Assembly (NCBI GenBank): GCA_041562555.1
Contig: JBFEXS010000074.1
Coordinates: 1-10,833 of the forward strand
Source: Sulfurimonadaceae bacterium
GTDB lineage: Bacteria; Campylobacterota; Campylobacteria; Campylobacterales; Sulfurimonadaceae
Length of the DNA: 10,833 nt
Direction of reading: 5' to 3'
Of this stretch, positions 1 to 10,833 are shown piece by piece; positions within the stretch are counted from its first letter, which is position 1, and each line of letters begins with the position of its first letter. Both the position numbers and the translations under genes were made by a program. A model generated the notes under the pieces. That model searched no databases. It saw only the letters and a program-made list of their open reading frames with translations, and was not told the origin of the DNA.

Positions 1-1
1 A

Positions 2-100
2 GATGGTGAATTTGAACTTATCTCGCTCGGTGCAGATGGGAAAGAAGGCGGTAAGGATGAAGGTGCCGATATCTCTTTGAGTGCTTGCCGCGATAAATAG
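2..100 (+). CDS. gspG: 3' end of type II secretion system major pseudopilin GspG (5'-truncated by window edge)
   Basis: Frame 2 reads DGEFELISLGADGKEGGKDEGADISLSACRDK* (TAG at 98-100). The SLGADGxEGG...ADI motif is the characteristic C-terminal Ca-binding region of GspG/PulG. Too short for the ORF track. Confidence 0.85.
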   Translation, partial: DGEFELISLGADGKEGGKDEGADISLSACRDK

Positions 101-114
101 ACGTACTTCTCTTC

Positions 115-139
115 AAGAAGATGAAACTTTCATCTTCTT
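115..139. terminator. Probable bidirectional intrinsic terminator between convergent gspG and the 138..635 gene
   Basis: Perfect inverted repeat AAGAAGATGAAA-C-TTTCATCTTCTT lying between two converging stop codons. Confidence 0.7.
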
Positions 140-635
140 ACTCCCCAACCTCTATCAATTCAAATGTCAATCGGTCTTCGTATTTACTGATATAGATCTT
201 TGCCGATCGGTCACACATCATCTTGGAACAGACGTAGGACCATTTTAGTTCATAGGATGCATAAAGTGGATTGTTCAGTGCATAGAGGACTGTCTGGCCG
301 ACAAAGGTCTGATAGACCTTAGCCGTGATATCTGCTCTCTCCTGTGGACCTTGAACACGGATAAAACGGATCTCTTTGTCTTTTTTGGCGATGAAGTCGG
401 TACTGAAGTCCGGATGTTTACTAAGGGAATATCCCTGCGCCTCAAAATGCATTTGCACCTGCTTGAAATAATCGATCCCTTGGGAGATGACGGTATTGCT
501 TTGACGTAACTCTTTTTGTATCTCAAAGGCAAAGTCATTAATGGCAGATTCGCGTTTTTTCCATTTTTGATTGAGATAATAGTAGGTGGCAAATCCCAAG
601 AAGAGAATGGAGAGTATAAAGAGTGAACTGGACAT
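138..635 (-). CDS. Membrane-anchored hypothetical protein with a degenerate Mrr-like (PD-(D/E)XK restriction endonuclease fold) domain
   Basis: 165-aa ORF with an N-terminal hydrophobic helix (LFILSILFLGFATYYYL) followed by basic residues. GIDYFKQVQMHFEAQGY...TDFIAKKDKEIRFIRVQ parallels the Mrr-type G..FE......GY...D.IA.K......QxK pattern. AAGGAA RBS at 643-648 and its own extended -10. Confidence 0.7.
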   Translation of the reverse strand: MSSSLFILSILFLGFATYYYLNQKWKKRESAINDFAFEIQKELRQSNTVISQGIDYFKQVQMHFEAQGYSLSKHPDFSTDFIAKKDKEIRFIRVQGPQERADITAKVYQTFVGQTVLYALNNPLYASYELKWSYVCSKMMCDRSAKIYISKYEDRLTFELIEVGE

Positions 636-661
636 AAACGTATTCCTTGAAATTTGAGATT

Positions 662-670
662 ATTATAGCA
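662..670 (-). promoter_or_regulatory. Extended -10 promoter (TGcTATAAT) for the 138..635 gene
   Basis: Reverse complement of 662-670 is TGCTATAAT, about 27 nt upstream of the ATG at 635, with the RBS in between. Confidence 0.75.
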
Positions 671-739
671 AAGGATCTGTTCGAATGTACATTTTGTCAT
701 AGATATCTTCCGGTTGATATTTTTACGGTATCTTACGGT

Positions 740-1012
740 ATGAATTTTAAACAGCTGAGTGAAGATATCTATTACAAATCATCCCATTATCGTTTCTCTA
801 AGAAGCCCAGCAGTTATGAGAAGGGATATATAAAGATAGCGGACTGGTTAAATGAGCTGTGCTACCATTATATTTCTCAGCAGAAGGAACTTAGCAAGGC
901 GAATGAAGATGAGTTTAAACACCTCGTTGATATACAGCGAATGAAAATAGAGAACCTGGCACCGTCGGAGTATAAGCAAGGACTGCTTAAAGCGCTTGAT
1001 GAGGCACTTTAA
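740..1012 (+). CDS. Hypothetical protein (~90 aa, soluble, predicted helical)
   Basis: Part of ORF 647..1012. The ATG at 740 (MNFKQLSEDIYYKSSHY...) is preferred because the 647 TTG start would overlap the divergent gene's RBS and promoter. It fills the gap between the neighbouring genes and has protein-like composition. Confidence 0.65.
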   Translation: MNFKQLSEDIYYKSSHYRFSKKPSSYEKGYIKIADWLNELCYHYISQQKELSKANEDEFKHLVDIQRMKIENLAPSEYKQGLLKALDEAL

Positions 1013-2358
1013 TATACGCCTGATAGACTGCCCGTCTCATAGTGAGCCTCTTTTTCAAGAATGTAAAGTTTGTATTTGTAATAGAGGGCCTTTTTTTTGA
1101 CTTTGAGTGTCAACATCTCCCTTTGATTTAATATAAAGAGATTACTGCTCCCCAGAACATATCTTGTGTTCTCAGCTTTTTCTAATTGCTCAAGAAGCGT
1201 TATCTCTTCTTGAGAACTTTGAAAGTTCTTAGAAAATATTCTAAATGCGTTGACGATATTTTTTAAATTTGTGCGGATAAGTGTAAGTGCCTTTTCCTTT
1301 GCCATTTGATTCTCAAGGATATGTTTTCTATTCTCTATATTGGCAGCATCATATTTGCGTCTTTGAAGGGGAAAGTTGATATCCAAAGAGACTTTATACC
1401 CATCATCATACTCAAAATCGTGAACGCCATACATGGATAAGTCAACCTTGGGATAGTTTAATAAGCTGGTCTGTTTCTGTTTGAGTGAGAGCTGCTGCAG
1501 TTTGATATCAAACTGTTTAAGATCATATCTGTTTTCCATAGCGTCATCCATCAGACTGTCCAGGTCTAAAGGCTCAAAATCCAAAGAGTGGATATGTGAA
1601 AGTTCGTAGGTGTTTTCAAAGCGTTCTTTACTGATATCAAGATACTGCAAAAAGTTTTCCATGGCAGCAGTATGATCGTTTATAGAGTTTAAGAGTGCTT
1701 GTTCGCGGTTAATAATCTGCTGCTTTGCCTCGACAAGTGATATCGTTGCCAGAGAGCCCACGGAAATTTTGTTCTGTATGATCTCCTTTCTCTGCTGCGC
1801 CTTGTATAAAAGTTCCTCTTGCAGTTCGATAATACTTTTTGTATACAGGACCTTTGCATACTCTAACAACACATTGAAATAGAGTGTACGAAGATTGTCT
1901 TTTGAATGATAATCCAGGATATTGTTTTCCAGACCGGCAGTATGTATATTGAGTTTTCGCTGATTCGTGTCCCTGAGGAGTGAGACAAGGGGGAGCTTTA
2001 CTCCTAAAAGGACTTCACCTTCATCTCCTGTCTTGATATTATTGTATTCCTGTTCGCCCTCTGCTTTTCTATAGGAAAGCGAGGCTTCAATTCCATTTTC
2101 AAATGGTTTTTTCATCCCCACGTCGATGAATTCGCCCTCACTGCTCGGATAGGCTTTATAATCATATTTCATGAAGGTTTCATAATCAAGATCCCCACGA
2201 TAATACATATCACGATTTTGCAGACGTTGCTGTTTGGCGATGGTCTCATAATAAAAGGGATTGGACTCGGTAAAGTACTCCAAGATCAATTTTTCAGTAA
2301 ACAGTTCTTTCGCTTCACTGAGGGTGAAGAGCAATAGGATGAGGAGTGTTTTTCTCAT
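1009..2358 (-). CDS. TolC-family outer membrane efflux/secretion channel
   Basis: 449 aa with a Sec signal peptide (MRKTLLILLLFTLSEA). Two-repeat helical/beta architecture with OEP-like motifs (AMENRYDLK, YPKVDLS, INFPL, RYVLGSSNLFILNQRE). Directly downstream of an HlyD-like gene. Confidence 0.9.
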   Translation of the reverse strand: MRKTLLILLLFTLSEAKELFTEKLILEYFTESNPFYYETIAKQQRLQNRDMYYRGDLDYETFMKYDYKAYPSSEGEFIDVGMKKPFENGIEASLSYRKAEGEQEYNNIKTGDEGEVLLGVKLPLVSLLRDTNQRKLNIHTAGLENNILDYHSKDNLRTLYFNVLLEYAKVLYTKSIIELQEELLYKAQQRKEIIQNKISVGSLATISLVEAKQQIINREQALLNSINDHTAAMENFLQYLDISKERFENTYELSHIHSLDFEPLDLDSLMDDAMENRYDLKQFDIKLQQLSLKQKQTSLLNYPKVDLSMYGVHDFEYDDGYKVSLDINFPLQRRKYDAANIENRKHILENQMAKEKALTLIRTNLKNIVNAFRIFSKNFQSSQEEITLLEQLEKAENTRYVLGSSNLFILNQREMLTLKVKKKALYYKYKLYILEKEAHYETGSLSGVY

Positions 2359-2361
2359 GCT

Positions 2362-3636
2362 TTATTTCTCAACCGTCGGAGTGACCATCTTAGGCGGGAA
2401 GGCGTTCATAAGTCGCCAGATCTGATACCAGATCGGAACTGTTTCAAGGCGGATCCAGACAGTGGCTTGCGTACCTGCTTTTAATACTTCACCTTTTGGC
2501 CAAGGCTCATTTGGATCTTCAACGATCCGTGCATAATAGAAACCTTTTTCATAGGATATCGGTTCGACTTTATCGACGATACCGGCGAAGGTCCCGTATT
2601 TGATCTGTGGCCAACCAGAGATTTGTAAAGCAGGCCATCCGTAAAACATGATACGTGTTGGCAGGCCCTCTTTTAAAAGAGGCATATTAAAGTCCGATAT
2701 CTTCAGCAGAATGCTTTTATGGGTTATCTTGGGTGAAAAATGCAGAATAGGGTCACCTTTTTTAATGAACTTGTTCTTGTCATTTTGCAGGACCCTGATG
2801 ACATAGCCATCTTTTTGTGCGTATACATTACCACTTTCATAGCGTTTGACATTTAAACTGTTACGTTGAATATCCTGGATGATAGACTTTAGTTTTGCAT
2901 TTGAGTCCAGTCTGTTGTTCCCAAGGAGCTTAATGTTGTTTTGCATCTCATTTAAGAAGGTCTTCTTCTCCTGGTCAAGGATGCGCAGGTTGTTCTCCTC
3001 GATGCTGATGTCTATATCGATTTTATCCAGTTCGGTTTTTGCTTTGATGTATCTGTTCTGCGCAACATCGTAGGTACGTTTAGATTCGATGCCATCTTCA
3101 TAGAGTTGCTTCATCCGTTTCAGATTGAGTTCTTCTATCTCATGTTTGTTGTCCAAAGCAAGCTTTTGGAATCGCAAGCTTTTGATACTGTTTTTGACCC
3201 TAATAATCTTTTTTTCATAGATATCCAGTCCCACTTCCAAGTTGTGTTCGAGGTTCTTCTCTTTTTGCTGAATGTTCTTGATCTGCTGTTCAAAGTCTTC
3301 GTATTGTGACTGTGAACTTTCATAGATAGAGCTTAGCTTTTTATCATATTCGCGATCCAGGTCGACAATGCTAAAGAGAAGGGTGCCTTTTTTTACAAAC
3401 TGGTTCTCGTGTACATATACCTTGTCTATCACCCCATCAATGGTTGCGAGCAAGGTGTAGTCCCTTTGCATCGGATCTGTGGCAATAAGTTTGCCTTCGC
3501 CTTTGATGGTCTGTTCCCAGGGTAAAAACAGAAAACTGACAGTCAGGAGAAAAAATATGGAGGTAATAAGCCAAACCTTTTGGATGATAGGATGCAGTTT
3601 TACCATATTTTTCGCAGTATAGACAGGATTAGACAT
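2362..3636 (-). CDS. HlyD-family membrane fusion (periplasmic adaptor) protein
   Basis: 424 aa with a single N-terminal TM (WLITSIFFLLTVSFLFLPW), lipoyl half-motifs (ATIDGVIDKVYVHENQFVKKGTLL and VYAQKDGYV), a long coiled coil, and a C-terminal VPIWYQIWRLMNAFPP. AAGGAG RBS at 3643-3648. Confidence 0.92.
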   Translation of the reverse strand: MSNPVYTAKNMVKLHPIIQKVWLITSIFFLLTVSFLFLPWEQTIKGEGKLIATDPMQRDYTLLATIDGVIDKVYVHENQFVKKGTLLFSIVDLDREYDKKLSSIYESSQSQYEDFEQQIKNIQQKEKNLEHNLEVGLDIYEKKIIRVKNSIKSLRFQKLALDNKHEIEELNLKRMKQLYEDGIESKRTYDVAQNRYIKAKTELDKIDIDISIEENNLRILDQEKKTFLNEMQNNIKLLGNNRLDSNAKLKSIIQDIQRNSLNVKRYESGNVYAQKDGYVIRVLQNDKNKFIKKGDPILHFSPKITHKSILLKISDFNMPLLKEGLPTRIMFYGWPALQISGWPQIKYGTFAGIVDKVEPISYEKGFYYARIVEDPNEPWPKGEVLKAGTQATVWIRLETVPIWYQIWRLMNAFPPKMVTPTVEK

Positions 3637-4588
3637 GCTGGTCTCCTTCTAAAGTACTCGATAGTTTCTCAACTTTATAAAAGCCTTCTGCCATGTCATA
3701 GATATAGTCGATCTGTTTCATAAAGCCTTTGAGGGCATAGGTGATAGTGACGACAATGATTTCAGCAGCGACAAATTCACCCAAAGGAAGGGTACTGTGA
3801 ATGACCAGATATCCACCGATGATCATAAAGGAACTGAAGATGAGACCTTCCATAAGATAGGTGAGTGTCAATTGGCTGAGGATCACCCTGAAGATCCTGG
3901 TGCGGGCCAAGACAAAGGTTTGAAGATAGGCATCAAATTGTTTTACAATACTTCCTTCATCTTCTTGCATATCGGGTATGTTTTGTAAATAATAGATCGC
4001 CTCATGTTTGGCATTGGAACGTTGAATACTGTACTCTATACCGTTACGGCCGAGTATAAACAATAAGACAATAAAAAGAACCAGGAAAAAGAGTCCGGCC
4101 TGAAATAAGACAACATCAAATGCAAGTAATAAAAGGAGACTAAGTATGAGTTTTACAATCAAGCCTGTTCCATCAAGCAGCATGACAGGAAATATCTTTT
4201 GGATGGCTTCTATGTCAAAAAAATAGTTCATCTGTTTGTCTACTTTCTCTTTATAATGGCTGTCCCTGTCTTTGGCCTGAATAGCCCTTGTCGCTATTTT
4301 GATCCCCATATTTACAAAGACTTTTTGTTGGAATTTTTCGACGATATACTGTTTGCCTACTTGCAAGACAGCTGCCAAAAGAAAGGTCGTGATAATCACA
4401 CCGCCAAGTACGGCAATAGAGATACTGGCATGGGCCAAGATACTGTTGATCATAAAGGAAGAGGCCAAGGGGATCGACAGAAGCAAGATCGCTTCGATCG
4501 TTGAATAGTAGATGAGGTAAAGAATCTGTCGTTTGTCTTCTTTGATAAGGCTTGTTATACTGGAAACTATGGACCTGTCTGTTTGCAT
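3629..4588 (-). CDS. ABC exporter transmembrane-domain-only protein (T1SS-associated family; no nucleotide-binding domain)
   Basis: 319 aa with about six hydrophobic segments and ABC-membrane-type motifs (LSIPL, NYFFDIEAIQK, GGYLVIHSTLPLGEFVAAEII, IYDMAEGFYKV). No Walker A/B or LSGGQ. The stop overlaps the hlyD-like start by 8 nt. Confidence 0.85.
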   Translation of the reverse strand: MQTDRSIVSSITSLIKEDKRQILYLIYYSTIEAILLLSIPLASSFMINSILAHASISIAVLGGVIITTFLLAAVLQVGKQYIVEKFQQKVFVNMGIKIATRAIQAKDRDSHYKEKVDKQMNYFFDIEAIQKIFPVMLLDGTGLIVKLILSLLLLLAFDVVLFQAGLFFLVLFIVLLFILGRNGIEYSIQRSNAKHEAIYYLQNIPDMQEDEGSIVKQFDAYLQTFVLARTRIFRVILSQLTLTYLMEGLIFSSFMIIGGYLVIHSTLPLGEFVAAEIIVVTITYALKGFMKQIDYIYDMAEGFYKVEKLSSTLEGDQHV

Positions 4589-4761
4589 AGTGGTATTCTT
4601 TCTTTTTTTATTGAGAATACTACCTTGATACTTTTTAAAAAAAATGGCAAAAAAAAAGCATTTTTTCCAATTAAGATATTCAAAAGTTTTTTGTAAATGG
4701 TTTATGGGACCAGGAATGAAGTCTAATATAGATGTTGTCTGAAAAGTTGTGGGGTTTTAAG

Positions 4762-4852
4762 TGGTGGACAGAGAGGGATTCGAACCCTCGGTACCGTTAC
4801 CAGTACGCATCCTTAGCAGGGATGTGGTTTCAGCCAACTCACCCATCTATCC
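4762..4852 (-). tRNA. tRNA-Ser (anticodon GCT), CCA encoded
   Basis: Reverse complement GGATAGATGGGTGAGTTGGCTGAAACCACATCCCTGCTAAGGATGCGTACTGGTAACGGTACCGAGGGTTCGAATCCCTCTCTGTCCACCA. Acceptor stem GGATAGA/TCTGTCC, anticodon arm CATCC-CTGCTAA-GGATG, long variable arm, T arm GAGGG-TTCGAAT-CCCTC. Confidence 0.97.
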
Positions 4853-4891
4853 ATCTAGTGTAAAACATCATAATAATGTTTTAGGACTGAG

Positions 4892-4924
4892 ATTATAACC
4901 AACAGAGATAAACTTTCACTTAAA
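4892..4924 (-). promoter_or_regulatory. Sigma70 promoter of tRNA-Ser
   Basis: Minus strand reads GT-TATAAT (-10 at 4892-4897) with TTTAAGT upstream at 4918-4924, resembling the Campylobacter-type upstream element. A TAAAACAT/ATGTTTTA hairpin (4861-4883) lies in the leader. Confidence 0.75.
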
Positions 4925-5038
4925 TTGAAAGGGTCTGGTCAGAATTTTGTCTGCATCTGCCAGTAAAAGCAGCTGCAGGCTTTAAAATCTGTGTCTATCG
5001 GTAAGTCAGAGTGTCTGTTTTACGAAGAAACGTCCCAC

Positions 5039-5185
5039 TCAAATAGAGTGTTTGTTTTGAGGATTGGCCAAAATCGCATCGAGTAGTTTTTGCAGTTGGT
5101 TGGCTAGTGCTGTATTGTTCTCTTTTGCAAGTGCAATTTTCTCTTTGAGTTTGACAACAACGTCGATTGTTTCCATAACTTTCAT
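5039..5185 (-). CDS. Small hypothetical protein (48 aa, amphipathic helical)
   Basis: MKVMETIDVVVKLKEKIALAKENNTALANQLQKLLDAILANPQNKHSI. A strong AAAGGAG RBS (5191-5197) lies 5 nt before the ATG at 5185. It occupies otherwise intergenic space. Confidence 0.65.
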   Translation of the reverse strand: MKVMETIDVVVKLKEKIALAKENNTALANQLQKLLDAILANPQNKHSI

Positions 5186-5240
5186 CCATACTCCTTTGTA
5201 TTTGCAGAGTATCAGCAAAATATATTCCAAAGTTTTTTAG

Positions 5241-5258
5241 AAAAGGGGAGAACCCCCT
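5241..5258 (-). terminator. Intrinsic terminator downstream of pyrF
   Basis: Minus strand AGGGG-GTTCT-CCCCT followed by TTTCT, about 55 nt past the pyrF stop. Confidence 0.6.
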
Positions 5259-5312
5259 AGACGAAGTTGTATAAAGCGCAGAGAGGTCTTGATATGGAGA
5301 TTAAAGGAGCTT

Positions 5313-5996
5313 TTAAATCTCGGCCAGGATCTTTTCGACGACGCTTGCGGGATCTTCAGCTTTGTAGATGGGGCGTCCGACGACAATAAAATCGACTTTT
5401 TGCTCTTGTGCTTTTTTGATGTCGGCAACACGTTTCTGATCACCTGCATCTTCACCAAACGGGCGGATACCCGGTGTCAGAGTAGCAAACTTCTCTGAGG
5501 TGATCTTTTTGATGGAAGCACTCTCAAAGGCGGAACATACGACCCCGTCCATACCGGCTTCGTAGGTGTCCTTTGCAAACTGGTCGGCTTTGGATGCGAT
5601 ATCTTGATTGTAGACTGCTTTGAAGTTCTCTTCATCAAAGGAGGTCAATGCTGTTACAGCCAGGACGATTGGACGCTTCTCATATTGTTCCAGACGCTGC
5701 ATCACCGTCTGCATCGCGACTTTTCCCGCACTGGCATGAACGTTAAACATGTCTACGCCCAATCCCATGATAGATTCGGCTGCATCGGCCATTGTATTCG
5801 GGATATCGTAAAGCTTGAGATCAAGAAAGATCTTGAAATTCGGATTGATCTTTTTAATGGCCTCAAGAAACTCTTTCCCGTCACGGATATAGGAGCGAAA
5901 CCCTACCTTAAGCCATACATCATAGGCTTTGATTTTTTCAACCAGGGCAAGGTTTTCTTCTTTCGTTGCCAGATCCAGTGCGACGCATAATTGCAT
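5313..5996 (-). CDS. pyrF: Orotidine-5'-phosphate decarboxylase
   Basis: MQLCVALD start with AAGGA RBS at 6003-6007. Catalytic motif [12 protein letters not shown], plus NVHAS, TPGIRP and VVGRPI. Confidence 0.98.
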
Positions 5997-6033
5997 AGAA
6001 CATCCTTTTATCTTAATGATGAAAGTATACATT

Positions 6034-6042
6034 GGTTACAAT
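6034..6042 (+). promoter_or_regulatory. Probable -10 box (ggtTACAAT) for the methyltransferase gene
   Basis: gnTACAAT about 28 nt upstream of the ATG at 6070, in the short divergent intergenic region. Confidence 0.5.
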
Positions 6043-6069
6043 ATCATACTTATAAAATATTGGAAAATT

Positions 6070-7251
6070 ATGAAAAAACTAGTTGTGAAAAATGCTGCTG
6101 CAAAAAAACTGCGTCTGTTTAACCCATGGGTCTATAAAAACGAGATCGCGATGATGCCTGAAGGATGCGAAGCAGGTGAGCTTGTGGAAGTCGTCAATCT
6201 TAAACAGGAGAGCTTTGGTATCGGCTATGTCAATGCTGCTTCTATGATCACGCTTCGTATGCTCTCTTTTTCAAATGAGGTGATCGATGAAGCCTGGATC
6301 AAAGAGAAGCTGTATATATCTATAACTGCACGTAATCCTATCCTGGAACATTCCAACTCCTGTCGTCTTGTACACTCTGAAGCGGATGGTCTGCCCGGGC
6401 TTATCGTTGATTTTTATGACGGTGTCTTGAGTATAGCGATCAATACAGCAGGTATGGAACGGTTGAGGCCTCAGATCCTATCTACTTTAAATGAGATCAT
6501 CAAACCGATGGGAATCTATGAAAAGTCAGATGCTTCTGCGAGACAAAAAGAGGGATTGGAAACCTTTGAGGGAACCATCCAGGGAGAGGTTCCCGACTTT
6601 ATAGAAGTGGTGGAGTTCGGCTGTCAGTTTGGATTGGAGCTTCAGCACTCGCAAAAGACGGGGTTTTACCTGGATCAACGTTTCAACCATGGGGTGTTGA
6701 CCGAGTATGTGGATGAAGAGGCTACGATGCTTGATCTTTTCTGTAATGTAGGCGGATTCGGGATGCATGCACTCAATGCGGGAGCCAAACATGTCACTTT
6801 TGTGGATATATCCAAAACAGCTATTGAACAGGTGGAAAAAAATATCGATCTCAATGGTTTCGCTGAAGAGGGTCGTTCCACTTGTGTCGCGGCAAATGCC
6901 ATGGACTATATCAAGGAGCTGGCAGATAAAAAAGAGTCTTTTGATATTGTCGTACTTGATCCTCCCTCTTTCGCCAAGACAAAAGAACAGGCAGAAGGAG
7001 CGATCAGCGGTTTTAAGCATCTTATGCTAAACGGGATCAAGGTGTGTAAACCGGGTGGTATCATCGCTCTGTTCTCCTGCTCGTATCATGTGGGTATGGA
7101 TGAATTGATCGATCTGAGTCTGGCGGCATCTCGTGACACGGGAAAACAGCTGAAAGTCTTGGAACATCTCTACCAGGACAAGGATCATCCGTACCTTCTG
7201 AACATGCCAAACTCTTTATATCTTAAAGGCCTGCTCTTTCAGGTGATCTAA
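6070..7251 (+). CDS. rlmI: Class I SAM-dependent rRNA methyltransferase, RlmI family (PUA domain plus MTase)
   Basis: Motifs NPWVYKNEI, RLVHSEADGLPGLIVD, QKTGFYLDQR, LDLFCNVGGFG, VVLDPPSFAK, FSCS. The start is placed at ATG 6070 because the ORF-track start overlaps pyrF. The exact target nucleotide is inferred from family only. Confidence 0.88.
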   Translation: MKKLVVKNAAAKKLRLFNPWVYKNEIAMMPEGCEAGELVEVVNLKQESFGIGYVNAASMITLRMLSFSNEVIDEAWIKEKLYISITARNPILEHSNSCRLVHSEADGLPGLIVDFYDGVLSIAINTAGMERLRPQILSTLNEIIKPMGIYEKSDASARQKEGLETFEGTIQGEVPDFIEVVEFGCQFGLELQHSQKTGFYLDQRFNHGVLTEYVDEEATMLDLFCNVGGFGMHALNAGAKHVTFVDISKTAIEQVEKNIDLNGFAEEGRSTCVAANAMDYIKELADKKESFDIVVLDPPSFAKTKEQAEGAISGFKHLMLNGIKVCKPGGIIALFSCSYHVGMDELIDLSLAASRDTGKQLKVLEHLYQDKDHPYLLNMPNSLYLKGLLFQVI

Positions 7252-7295
7252 AAGCAAGTACGATAAACTGCTTTGCAAACAATCAAAAAGGAAAA

Positions 7296-7856
7296 ATGAT
7301 GAAGGTATTTTCGATGATCATTGCTCTGTTTTTAGGCAGTGCAAGCGTATATGCCGCAGCGAATGAAACGGTGACCCTAGGCGGTACAAAGATCCAGCTC
7401 TTTGGAAAGATGTTGGACGTAGGTGATAGTGCCCCAGTGGTCACTCTGGTGAGTTCAGAACTCAAAGAGGTGAGTGTCGGTGGTGATACCAAAGAGACGC
7501 AGGTACTGGTAGTAGTTCCGAGTATTGATACACCGATTTGTGATCTTGAGGCACGCACCTTCAATGAGAAGGCGGCATCAATGAACAATGTACATATCAC
7601 AGTCGTATCTATGGACCTGCCTTTTGCAGGAAAACGTTATTGTGCAGCCCATGGAATAGATAATATCACTGTCGCTTCGGACTTTCAGGACAAAACATTC
7701 GGTAAGACCTATGGAACGCTTATAGACGAAGGTATACTCAAAGGCATCGAAGCACGTGTGATCTTCATCATCAAAGATGGGAAAGTGAGTTACAGACAAC
7801 TGGTTCCTGAGATCAAGCAAGAACCTGATTTTGAGGCGGCATTAAAGGCTATCTAG
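7296..7856 (+). CDS. tpx: Thiol peroxidase (atypical 2-Cys peroxiredoxin, Tpx) with N-terminal signal peptide
   Basis: VVPSIDTPICD (peroxidatic Cys), SMDLPFAGKRYC (resolving Cys), ARVIFII, EPDF. AAGGAA RBS just upstream. Extra N-terminal MMKVFSMIIALFLGSASVYA. Confidence 0.93.
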   Translation: MMKVFSMIIALFLGSASVYAAANETVTLGGTKIQLFGKMLDVGDSAPVVTLVSSELKEVSVGGDTKETQVLVVVPSIDTPICDLEARTFNEKAASMNNVHITVVSMDLPFAGKRYCAAHGIDNITVASDFQDKTFGKTYGTLIDEGILKGIEARVIFIIKDGKVSYRQLVPEIKQEPDFEAALKAI

Positions 7857-7868
7857 TTAAGAAAGCCC

Positions 7869-7877
7869 TGCTACAAT
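7869..7877 (+). promoter_or_regulatory. Extended -10 (TGcTACAAT) for the DMT gene
   Basis: TGCTACAAT ends 7 nt before the ATG at 7885. Confidence 0.65.
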
Positions 7878-7884
7878 TTCGTTC

Positions 7885-8775
7885 ATGATTACAAACATGG
7901 ACCGCGGAATACTTTTTATGCTGCTGAGTGCGCTGATCTCAGCGTTGAACGGAGCAGTAGCGAAGATCCTGGCAGAAGATTTTTCTGCACTGGAGATCGT
8001 TTTTTATCGTAACCTCCTAGGGGTGGCGATGGTACTGTATACCCTTAAACATACTAAACCGACACTCAGCGGCGGAAAACTGCATCTGTTGATTTTACGT
8101 GGTATCTTTGGTGCATCGGCAATGGTACTCTTCTTTTATACGATTACGGTCATCCCTTTGGGTGAAGCGATCACGTTAAACAAGACATCTCCTTTCTTTG
8201 TCTCGATTCTGGCGTTTTACCTGATGAAAGAACATCTTAGCAAACGGGCTGTTGTAGCTTTGTTGATAGGTTTTATCGGCATCGTGCTCATCACGAAACC
8301 TTTTGGTTTGAGTATTTCCCAAGCACACTTTTTAGGTATCTTGGGAGGGTTTTCAGCTGCTGCGGCTTATGCTACGATTAAAAAGATCAAAGATATCTAT
8401 GATACCCGTGTGATCATGCTCTCTTTCATGGGGATGGGAACACTCTTCCCTCTTGTCCTGTTTATCCTTTCGTATTGGGTACAAGACCCTCCGGAATACA
8501 TCTCTTTCTTGTTCTCGGGCATATCCTGGCATGATGAGTGGCATTTATGGTTCTTAATAGGATTTATGTCGCTTATCTCTACGATATCCCAATGGTTGTT
8601 GACAAAGGCCTACAGTCTTTCCAAGGCAAGCATCATCGGGGTGATATCCTATACGAATATTCCTTTTGCAATAGGTTTTGGCTGGATGTTAGGGGATGCC
8701 TTTCCGGACTTTTGGACTTTTAGCGGAATCGGTTTGATTGTATTGGGGGGAATATTGGTCAGTAGAAGTAAATAG
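7885..8775 (+). CDS. EamA/DMT-family transporter
   Basis: 296 aa with about ten hydrophobic segments in two repeats. Motifs EIVFYRN, LILRG, IPLGEA..L..TSP, LMKEHL, AYSLSKAS. An alternative start exists at 7897. Confidence 0.92.
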   Translation: MITNMDRGILFMLLSALISALNGAVAKILAEDFSALEIVFYRNLLGVAMVLYTLKHTKPTLSGGKLHLLILRGIFGASAMVLFFYTITVIPLGEAITLNKTSPFFVSILAFYLMKEHLSKRAVVALLIGFIGIVLITKPFGLSISQAHFLGILGGFSAAAAYATIKKIKDIYDTRVIMLSFMGMGTLFPLVLFILSYWVQDPPEYISFLFSGISWHDEWHLWFLIGFMSLISTISQWLLTKAYSLSKASIIGVISYTNIPFAIGFGWMLGDAFPDFWTFSGIGLIVLGGILVSRSK

Positions 8776-8795
8776 AAGAAGAGGTCTGAAGACCT
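8770..8795 (-). terminator. Probable terminator for acs (between convergent genes)
   Basis: Minus strand AGGTC-TTCA-GACCT (8795-8782) followed by CTTCTTCTATTT, overlapping the acs stop codon. Confidence 0.5.
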
Positions 8796-10764
8796 ATCCT
8801 TTGACGATCGTTTCGATTTGTGCTACTACGCTTGGATCTTCCAATGTAGAGATGTCCTGGGTGATTGCCTCACCTTTTGCGATAGAACGAAGAATACGAC
8901 GCATTATTTTTCCTGAACGTGTCTTAGGAAGACCCGGAGCAAAGACAATGTCATCACACACGGCAATATTTCCGATCTCTTTTTTGATGACTTCATTGAT
9001 CGCTTTTATTTTTGCGACATCATCCTCATATCGCTCTGGGTCCAATTCGTTTTTCAGGACGATATAGGCGAAGATACCTTCACCTTTGAGTTCATGCGGT
9101 TTACCGACGACAGCAACCTCTGCCACGTCATCATCTTTCTTGATAGCCGCTTCGATCTCGGCTGTTCCCATACGGTGTCCGGATACATTGATGACATCAT
9201 CGGTACGACCGGTGATCGTGATATATCCATCCTCATCGTAATTTGCTCCATCACCGGTAAAGTAGACGGCTCGGCCATCTTTTTGGACATCCCCGAAGTA
9301 GGATTTTTTAAAGCGTTCAGGATCTCCCCACACATTTCGGATCATCGATGGCCAAGGACGTGTAATACACATATATCCGCTTTCACCTTTGCCGACTTTT
9401 TTACCTGTTTCAGGATCAAGGATCTCTCCGATGATACCCGGAAGCGGCAGGGTCGCACAGGCCGGTTTGATCGGTGTGGCACCCGGTAAAGGAGAGATGA
9501 TATGTCCTCCTGTTTCTGTTTGCCAGTAGGTGTCTACTATGGCACATTTGGAAGCACCCACCTCTTCGTAATACCACTTCCACGCCGGTGGATCGATAGG
9601 CTCTCCAACGGTTCCGAGAACTCTGAGTGAAGAGATGTCATATTTTGCAGGTTCCTGCTCGCCCATCTTGTGCAGGACACGGATCGCTGTCGGCGCAGTA
9701 TAGAACTGGTTGATCTTATGCTCTTGTACCATCTTCCATGGGCGGCCTGCATCAGGGTAGGTAATGACCCCTTCAAACATCACTGTAGTTGCACCCATTG
9801 CCAGCGGGCCGTATACGATATAGGTATGGCCGGTAATCCAACCCACATCGGCAGTACACCAATAGGTGTCTGTTTCTTTGACGTCAAAGACCCATTCCAT
9901 TGTCAGCTGTGCCCAGAGGATATATCCGGCTGAATTATGCTGGACACCTTTTGGTTTACCGGTTGAACCTGATGTGTACAGAAGGAAGAGAGGATCTTCT
10001 GCATCCATCACCTCTGCTTCACATTCACTGGCTTTACCCTGGATGAGTTCGGTATAGGAGTAGTCACGTCCTGCAATCCATGTAACCTCTTCATTATTAC
10101 GCTCGACTACGAGTACTTTCTCGACAGGAGTTTCGCCTTCGAGGGCAGCATCGACAACAGGTTTGAGCATGTAGGGTTTGGATTTTCTAAAAGCACCATC
10201 AGCAGTGATGACGACTTTTGCATCGGCATCTTCGATTCGATCACGAAGTGCTTCTGCCGAGAATCCGCCAAAAACGATAGAATGGATGGCTCCGATACGT
10301 GCACAGGCAAGCATGGCATAGGCTGCTTCAGGTATCATCGGCATATAGATCACGACACGATCACCTTTTTTTACGCCAAAGTCTTCTTTGAGAAGATTGG
10401 CAAATCTGTTCACATGGTGATAAAGTTCCAGATAGCTGATACTTTCTACATCTCCGCGGTCGCCTTCAAAGAGTATAGCCGTCTTGTTTTTACGGGTATC
10501 AAGATGACGGTCGATACATTGGGCAGTAACATTCAGTTTCCCCCCGTCAAACCATTTGACAAAGGGCATATTGGATTCATCCAAGACAGTAGAAAAAGGC
10601 TCAATCCAGTCGATTTTTTCTTTAGCATAGTCTCCCCAAAATCCCTCATAGTCATTTTCAGCTTTTTGGCACAGGGCTTTATACTCATCCATATTTTTGA
10701 TACGGGCATTTTTAGCAAAGTCTGCATTGGGTTGAAATACCGGTTTTTTCGTTGTCTCGCTCAT
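8794..10764 (-). CDS. acs: Acetyl-CoA synthetase (acetate--CoA ligase, AMP-forming)
   Basis: [35 protein letters not shown] and [11 protein letters not shown] (with the acetylation-site Lys). The start MSETTKK at 10764 has an AGGA RBS at 10771-10774. Confidence 0.98.
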
Positions 10765-10813
10765 TTTTTTTCCTGTTAAAATGTAAAGTGCGCAATGATA
10801 GCTCACTGCATTT

Positions 10814-10819
10814 ATTGTA
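10814..10819 (-). promoter_or_regulatory. Possible -10 box (TACAAT) for acs
   Basis: Reverse complement TACAAT about 50 nt upstream of the acs start. The upstream context is cut off by the window edge. Confidence 0.4.
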
Positions 10820-10833
10820 GGGTTAATTGTATC

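Follow-up and report, generated by a model that had tools for sequence, protein, structure and literature searches.

A conserved operon of Campylobacterota for a probable tripartite exporter with an ABC-type membrane domain that lacks an ATPase domain

The stretch of DNA analyzed here (hereafter the window) comprises 10,833 nt from a Sulfurimonadaceae bacterium (GCA_041562555.1, contig JBFEXS010000074.1, forward strand 1–10,833) and carries, on its minus strand, an operon for a membrane protein with the fold of ATP-binding cassette (ABC) exporters, a periplasmic adaptor and a TolC-like outer-membrane factor. We consider the chances about even that these three genes encode a tripartite, EmrAB-TolC-like efflux pump in which an ABC-fold inner-membrane dimer has permanently lost its nucleotide-binding domain (NBD) and is probably driven by protons. 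The original prediction, made from the letters of the window alone, had described a type I-like exporter whose ABC component has no ATPase domain. In order to place this architecture, the three proteins were compared with protein families and known folds, while their homologues were analyzed for length, gene order, selection and ancestry, and the genome of origin was searched for a separately encoded ATPase.

The membrane domain and its two partners

Gene 1 (3629..4588, minus strand) encodes an ABC type IV exporter transmembrane domain (TMD) of 319 aa (P0001) without NBD. As had been predicted, no Walker or signature motif was detected in it by Pfam and NCBIfam scans. An NBD was not found elsewhere in the window either. 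The ABC-membrane identity proposed for it was upheld by an NCBIfam match, a full-length alignment and the predicted fold, but not by the expected Pfam family, as neither ABC_membrane (PF00664) nor ABC_tran (PF00005) matched at E ≤ 1, where only a noise-level match to ComGE appeared; a C39 peptidase domain was also absent in the Pfam scan. The NCBIfam model TIGR03796 (NHLP exporter) matched with an E-value of 6.9e-9 over profile positions 138–448 of 710, which correspond to its membrane part, although the score (34.4 bits vs. a cut-off of 853) leaves P0001 under the cut-off of this and every other curated family. In an exhaustive phmmer search, residues ~5–310 aligned with the membrane domains of proteins of 540–860 aa (E 1e-33 to 1e-25), the best-aligned of which share 25–31% identity with P0001. 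ABC_tran was present in 15 of 16 scanned relatives of at least 530 aa, and the nearest NCBIfam models of these TMD-NBD proteins (hereafter fused relatives) were the LssB, NHLP, HlyB, and PrtD exporters, all below cut-off.

The AlphaFold2 model of P0001 (mean predicted local distance difference test, pLDDT, 78.8) consists of six long helices and was matched by Foldseek to PCAT1 (E 5.5e-7), TmrAB, ComA, and PrtD. When it was superposed on type IV ABC exporters with VIA-align, Z was 25.4 (root-mean-square deviation 2.9 Å, 312 of 319 residues), with 24.7 for HlyB (8dck) and 23.2 for PrtD (5l22); a profile of 30 family members found no match among PDB sequences at E ≤ 0.01. The fold is thus that of a six-helix type IV exporter membrane domain, with the fused NBD missing. 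The original prediction had the protein stop right after its last membrane span; the end is indeed clean, but it lies further on, where the cytoplasmic extension of helix 6 (helix 269–317) finishes. Because P0001 stops in the alignment exactly where the NBD of the fused relatives starts, it comprises the entire membrane domain of an ABC exporter and no further part. Several sources in the public records label members of this NBD-less family either ‘ABC transporter ATP-binding protein’ or an exporter ‘with double-glycine peptidase domain’; neither domain is present, and the first of these names is wrong for hundreds of entries.

Gene 2 (2362..3636, minus strand) encodes a periplasmic adaptor (membrane fusion protein) of the HlyD/EmrA type (P0002, 424 aa), with Biotin_lipoyl_2 (32.1 bits) and HlyD_3 (28.3 bits) above the Pfam cut-offs, and TIGR01843 (type_I_hlyD, 5.7e-16) and EmrA TIGR00998 (1.4e-11) under those of NCBIfam. 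Its AlphaFold2 model (pLDDT 83.1) has an N-terminal transmembrane helix (16–36) and a hairpin of two ~85-residue helices (95–180 and 186–268), so that the membrane anchor and the lipoyl, alpha-hairpin, and beta-barrel domains of such adaptors are all present. The top fold match was EmrA (4tko, E 2.6e-18) with MacA second, and further matches included the EmrAB-TolC entries 8zal and 8zar as well as HlyD (5c21, 1.3e-9). Gene 3 (1009..2358, minus strand) encodes a TolC-like outer-membrane factor (P0003, 449 aa) with the two repeats of the TolC family (OEP, PF02321; 1.7e-19, 70.8 bits vs. a cut-off of 22, in two stretches) and, as read from the translation, an N-terminus that resembles a signal peptide without lipobox cysteine.

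The layout of the three genes on the minus strand was recovered from the sequence and the translations, together with the originally predicted details of their coupling. The TAA that ends gene 1 (3631–3629) and the ATG of gene 2 (3636–3634) lie in an overlap of 8 nt (ATGTCTAA, 3629..3636, minus strand), which points to translational coupling, and the AAGGAG ribosome-binding site of gene 2 (3643..3648, minus strand) is embedded in the final codons of gene 1 with a 6-nt spacer before the ATG. Only three bases separate the end of gene 2 (2362) from the start of gene 3 (2358). Upstream of gene 1, an A+T-rich leader or promoter region of 173 nt (4589..4761, minus strand) lies between it and a tRNA-Ser(GCU) gene (4762..4852; Rfam tRNA match 4765–4852), also as predicted; the leader matched no Rfam family at E ≤ 1, and a scan for consensus promoters and terminators gave nothing convincing within it.

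Conservation and descent of the NBD-less architecture

A search among proteins of 175–559 aa recovered 429 homologues of P0001 (E ≤ 1e-3). Among the matches listed (120 of 429), lengths range from 305 to 338 aa and are mostly 319 aa, and the named sources are Sulfurimonas (among them S. aquatica and S. marina), Sulfuricurvum, Sulfurovum, Thiovulum, and ‘Campylobacterota’. Gene order was surveyed in species-representative genomes, which yielded 29 loci: the adaptor gene directly follows the TMD gene in 29/29, and a TolC-like gene comes next in all 24 loci with room for it (L003, L012, L014, L023, and L024 end too early to show it). The genes flanking the operon vary across these loci. The ratio of non-synonymous to synonymous substitution rates (dN/dS) was 0.046–0.165 for the TMD gene and 0.058–0.179 for the adaptor gene (pairs with dS < 1), and 0.11–0.21 for the TolC-like gene, which contradicts relaxed selection on any of the three. 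No close fused relative was found in a search limited to longer proteins, the best match being 27% identical, so that full-length TMD-NBD genes in close relatives, one way in which the prediction might have failed, did not turn up. Since length, gene order, and sequence are conserved and dN/dS is far below 1, an evolved architecture, as opposed to decay or assembly error, is strongly supported, in agreement with the original prediction.

That the gene is decaying, was cut back in this strain only or was misassembled is refuted by this conservation and selection, and this reading retains next to no probability. Nothing speaks positively for it, although the junction at 3629–3636 lies outside the contigs of two sequencing runs (3605–3731 uncovered), four runs being on record for the source, all DNA and from one study. 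On the other side, the same length and boundary recur in the 120 listed homologues and the 29 loci, across many assemblies, and the 8-nt coupling overlap is intact.

The distribution of the operon is patchy and accessory. P0001 was found in 4/40 sampled genomes of the same family and 0/2 of the same genus, and in a wider sample it was present in 3/34 genomes of its own family and in 0/366 genomes from 13 other families of the phylum. These samples are sparse, as operon loci are known from Sulfurovum genomes.

As a group, the fused relatives make up a subfamily of their own with the signature residues of P0001, namely N121, FFD 123–125, Q130-K131, S191, K194, R229, Q239, G270, E276, Y297-D298, and K305. 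In order to score their NBD motifs, 171 fused relatives (P0128–P0271 of at least 530 aa together with the fused loci among L055–L128) were aligned with a canonical NBD from the window’s own genome. The Walker A lysine was kept in 127/171, the Walker B aspartate with the catalytic glutamate in 35/171, the H-loop histidine in 33/171, and the SGG of the signature in 3/171, while all four catalytic hallmarks together occurred in none. Their Pfam ABC_tran scores were also lower (27–95 bits vs. 75–128 bits for the 23 top NBD matches of the own genome). By comparison of motifs and signature residues, the operon is shown to descend from an ABC-adaptor-outer-membrane-factor subfamily whose NBDs were already catalytically degenerate; this degenerate ancestry is a refinement beyond the original prediction.

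Two short members of this group deserve separate mention. In one locus (L092:1118–2539) the reading frame ends inside the NBD (~473 aa), which may represent an intermediate or a broken gene. Another protein (P0143, 339 aa, on a contig of 1291 nt) is apparently NBD-less and branches in the tree with a different set of fused proteins. Here the NBD may have been lost once more, or the short contig may have cut the protein off.

A second NBD-less lineage was recognized from three proteins (P0227, P0283, and P0284; 338 aa) that end at the same TMD/NBD boundary and keep the ancestral residues. When metagenomes were scanned with P0283, 80 loci (L049–L128) were obtained: 16 are NBD-less (L049–L054, L056–L062, L065, L066, and L072; proteins of ~330–340 aa), 61 are fused TMD-NBD, one is the locus with the truncated NBD (L092), and two run off their contigs. 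The adaptor gene follows in all 15 NBD-less loci with room, its product being homologous to P0002 (E 1e-39 to 1e-49 for the full-length matches), and in 54 of the 61 fused ones; the third gene encodes an OEP protein in 6/6 loci scanned for it. A divergent TetR regulator lies upstream in 5/7 inspected NBD-less loci vs. 1/6 fused loci. With a dN/dS of 0.039–0.066, this lineage is under purifying selection as well. It is nested among fused TMD-NBD relatives at 49–67% identity and may be commonest in Bacteroidota, which a language-model look-up suggests as no more than a lead.

In maximum-likelihood trees of the TMD (96 rows) and of the TMD together with the adaptor (56 rows), the two NBD-less clades come out separately, and a long stem of 1.5–1.8 changes per site leads to the Campylobacterota clade. 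A single NBD-less clade is nevertheless not rejected by the approximately unbiased (AU) test (p 0.206 for the TMD tree, p 0.308 for TMD plus adaptor). As the trees split the clades and the AU tests do not reject a single one, the sequences are compatible with either one or two losses of the NBD.

Energy source and substrates

Transport across the inner membrane can be powered only by ATP or by ion gradients. The original prediction had offered three options for this operon, i.e., an NBD borrowed in trans, proton-motive force or a passive conduit; the first has become the least likely of them, as no partner NBD was seen, while the other two stand. The genome of origin (137 contigs, 89% complete) contains 33 PF00005 matches, and when the flanks of the operon loci were searched by tblastn with 23 of its NBDs, an NBD-like gene turned up at no more than 1/29, 2.4 kb away and on the opposite strand. 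When 21 NBD frames of the genome were compared with the NBDs of the relatives, only two fused half-transporters stood out (122 and 151 bits), the stand-alone NBDs reaching 50–87 bits, with one giving no score. Four NBD genes have no recognizable permease next to them, and the proposed search for such orphans with a matching phylogenetic profile came out negative: they occur in 40/40, 37/40, 39/40, and 0/40 family genomes vs. 4/40 for the operon, and thus, being near-universal or unique to the genome, do not track it. Hence no candidate for a separately encoded ATPase partner was seen, neither as a dedicated split gene in the operon nor elsewhere in this 89%-complete genome.

That the operon encodes an ordinary ABC pump run on ATP, with TMD and NBD in separate genes and the NBD lent by a stand-alone ATPase or a half-transporter, is accordingly given a low probability. 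In favor of this reading, split TMD and NBD genes occur in the YddA family (according to passages of PMC13316013), the cytoplasmic extensions of gene 1 are conserved, and four orphan NBD genes exist in a genome that is not fully recovered. Against it, no NBD lies near the operon in 28/29 loci, nor within 6 kb in any of the 16 loci of the second lineage; the stand-alone NBDs of the genome resemble those of the relatives at a generic level only; the orphans are core or unique genes; and the ancestral NBD was already without canonical catalytic motifs. The orphan present in 0/40 other family genomes is an ABC-type ATPase of 246 aa with a Walker A motif (G000:C4:32959–33699, i.e., L047:3001–3741, minus strand) and neighbors two open reading frames (ORFs) of 481 and 154 aa that match no Pfam or NCBIfam family; this locus looks like an accessory system.

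The membrane domain itself also changed. The 120 Campylobacterota NBD-less proteins were compared with 135 fused relatives, and their replacements at positions 122 (R in 91% of the fused proteins, Y in the NBD-less ones), 190 (E in 94%, then R), 195 (Y to H), 247 (Q or K to E), 271 (Q to E), and 146 (Q to K) are 96–100% fixed; further fixed replacements concern positions 202 (E to Q), 53 (G to H), and 301 (A to E). R122 and E190 belong to the cytoplasmic extensions and are near-invariant in NBD-bearing relatives, so that their replacement in the NBD-less clade, which counts against a borrowed NBD, would fit a lost NBD interface, as judged from the alignment. The NBD-less family varies most at the tips of the two cytoplasmic loops (~106–115 and ~206–216), yet the same holds to an equal degree for the 135 NBD-bearing relatives, and this variability was consequently dropped as a sign of coupling-helix decay.

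Proton-coupled alternating access of the ABC-fold dimer appears to be the most likely mechanism, a view that we hold with roughly balanced confidence and by analogy with known NBD-less transporters. It is favored because no ATPase is available, either its own or within reach, and because the ancestral NBD was degenerate. In such a pump, a homodimer of the type IV membrane domain would pair with the EmrA-like long-hairpin adaptor and the TolC-like duct, would need no dedicated NBD to hydrolyze ATP for its activity, and would most likely be moved through its cycle of alternating access by the proton-motive force, as SbmA is and as MsbA and LmrA, when truncated, can be. Residues 146, 247, and 271 sit within hydrophobic segments, and since they are fixed only in the Campylobacterota clade and lie inside hydrophobic helices, K146 (helix 3), E247 (helix 5), and E271 (helix 6) are proposed, speculatively, as candidate proton-coupling sites beside the subfamily-wide E276 and D139.

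Several points weigh against a proton-driven pump of this kind. Proton coupling is purely an inference. In the second NBD-less lineage, Q146, K247, and Q271 are retained as in the fused ancestors and none of the listed changes is seen, and therefore K146, E247, and E271 are not a general requirement. Moreover, the cytoplasmic helical extensions to which an NBD would be attached are strongly conserved (e.g., MNYFFD, RSxxKH, and KQIDYIYD), which could mean that a cytoplasmic partner docks there, and the gene for a partner could lie in the part missing from the 89%-complete genome.

Alternatively, the dimer could be a passive or gated conduit or a scaffold that anchors the adaptor hexamer and TolC, with substrates following their own gradient or entering from the periplasm and gene 1 supplying no energy. 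This is unlikely, though somewhat less so than a borrowed NBD. The whole subfamily has degenerate NBDs, so its ancestor may have been no motor either; no energy-coupling element was identified; and shared conservation is strongest at those ends of helices 5 and 6 that face the periplasm (GxFxAxE), where the adaptor would sit. However, the TMD is strongly conserved throughout, from its cytoplasmic extensions to the polar residues within the membrane, which exceeds what an anchor needs, and an open channel across the envelope would presumably be costly for the cell. Known tripartite systems, as described in parts of PMC8277102, use energized inner-membrane transporters.

As for what the proton-driven pump would export, small molecules rather than proteins seem the more plausible substrates, given the EmrA-like adaptor (EmrA being the adaptor of a proton-driven pump of the major facilitator superfamily, MFS), the TetR regulator in the sister lineage, the lack of a conserved neighboring cargo gene and of a peptidase domain, and the patchy distribution. 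For the same first two reasons, the label of the original prediction was kept in its tripartite exporter part, whereas ‘efflux pump’ fits better than ‘type I-like’. A type I secretion system in which the NBD-less ABC subunit would translocate a protein or peptide whose gene lies elsewhere is improbable. The nearest NCBIfam models of gene 1 and the fused relatives do belong to such exporters (LssB, NHLP, HlyB, and PrtD, all under cut-off), and the TIGR01843 match of the adaptor points the same way; by contrast, none of the 29 loci contains a conserved cargo gene adjoining the operon, no C39 peptidase domain is present, and the TetR neighbors and the EmrA-like adaptor suggest small-molecule efflux. 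To our knowledge, there is no precedent for the export of unfolded proteins without ATP.

Surroundings of the operon and comparison with known systems

The remaining genes of the window encode PyrF, a PUA-domain methyltransferase, a redoxin, an EamA transporter, and an acetyl-CoA synthetase, none of them related to ABC ATPases, and the G+C content of the operon (40.0% vs. 42.7% for the genome) is not distinctive. Two ORFs next to gene 3, at 138–635 (minus strand, 165 aa) and 647–1012 (plus strand, 121 aa), match no Pfam or NCBIfam family; the former has an orthologue at 58% identity in a genome of the same genus (G421), and the latter is convergent with gene 3 and overlaps the TolC stop. In G421, the slot between this orthologue and the tRNA-Ser gene (L133:5346–7664, corresponding to 636–4761 of the window) lacks the operon and is occupied by an unannotated plus-strand ORF of 428 aa without Pfam match; because this slot carries a different gene, the operon sits in a variable region beside a tRNA gene. 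A tRNA upstream of the operon was found in 0/29 related loci. Between pyrF and tRNA-Ser, an ORF of 64 aa (4995–5189, minus strand) is preceded by AAAGGAG, has a coiled-coil-like sequence without family match, and is ~70% conserved in G421 (tblastx). The Rfam match ‘Plastid-psbl-rps4’ at 4765–4816 (plus strand; 41.8 bits vs. a gathering score of 68), antisense to tRNA-Ser, almost certainly reflects nothing but the tRNA sequence.

No account of a tripartite pump built on an NBD-less ABC membrane domain came up in word-matching searches of the literature outside subscription journals. In the transcriptome of Sulfurovum indicum, HlyD-family and TolC genes are induced with elemental sulfur (as given in parts of PMC10045233); they were considered as counterparts of this operon and set aside, as the locus tags could not be linked.

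Type I secretion and bacteriocin exporters (HlyB, PrtD, LssB, PCAT1, and NHLP) share the six-helix fold of gene 1 (Z 23–25) as well as HlyD-type adaptor and TolC partners, and their unnamed members are its sequence homologues. Gene 1 differs from them in having neither an NBD nor a C39 or C39-like N-terminal domain and in scoring below every cut-off; in addition, no cargo gene was found with the operon, and the NBD motifs of its nearest fused relatives are degenerate. The likely working likeness is rather with EmrAB-TolC, i.e., a small inner-membrane transporter without periplasmic domain, a long-hairpin adaptor, TolC, and the proton gradient, although the fold of gene 1 is ABC type IV and not MFS, so that the likeness concerns function and adaptor only. 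MacAB-TolC (type VII) is likewise an ABC-family tripartite efflux pump, and MacA is the second-best fold match of P0002, but MacB is of another fold and combines a large periplasmic domain with a working NBD, none of which gene 1 possesses.

Laboratory truncations offer a closer parallel for the membrane domain. The NBD-less membrane domain of LmrA (LmrA-MD) can reportedly work without its ATPase domain. For that of MsbA (MsbA-MD), ethidium efflux that depends on the pH difference (delta-pH) was described in cells and proteoliposomes (passages of PMC4979069). Both are cut at the same boundary as gene 1 and are less efficient than the full proteins, whereas the truncation of gene 1 is natural, ancient, under selection, and placed within a tripartite pump.

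Passages of a review (PMC8277102) group the inner-membrane engines of tripartite pumps as ABC (ATP) and as resistance-nodulation-division (RND) and MFS (proton) transporters, and a phrase search of the first 300,000 characters of its text brought up no mention of an NBD-less ABC engine. ABC-fold secondary transporters might constitute a further energy class, a suggestion that we make tentatively and with less than even confidence: the subfamily would have abandoned ATP hydrolysis, its NBD having become degenerate and having been discarded in one or two lineages. The fused members would then retain a degenerate, perhaps regulatory, NBD, and the Campylobacterota lineage (and probably that of Bacteroidota) would run the ABC cycle on the proton gradient. 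The role of the degenerate NBDs in the fused relatives would become a question in its own right, and with 319 aa, an adaptor, and TolC, the operon would offer a minimal, genetically simple system to ask how much of ABC alternating access is intrinsic to the TMD.

SbmA/BacA (SLiPT, SbmA-like peptide transporters) is, like gene 1, a natural ABC-exporter-like membrane domain without NBD; according to passages of PMC13316013, SbmA has an ABC fold, is driven by protons, and presumably arose by NBD loss from a YddA-like TMD. SbmA acts alone as a peptide importer, carries an additional TM0, and has neither adaptor nor outer-membrane partner, while the operon described here is tripartite. Gene 1 does not belong to the SbmA_BacA family (Pfam at E ≤ 1) and descends from a different ABC subfamily, the type I secretion relatives being nearest. 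If the proton-driven reading holds, this conserved natural ABC-fold engine without ATPase would be the exporter counterpart of SbmA, coupled to TolC, and would make primary and secondary transport harder to tell apart for export, as SbmA has done for import.

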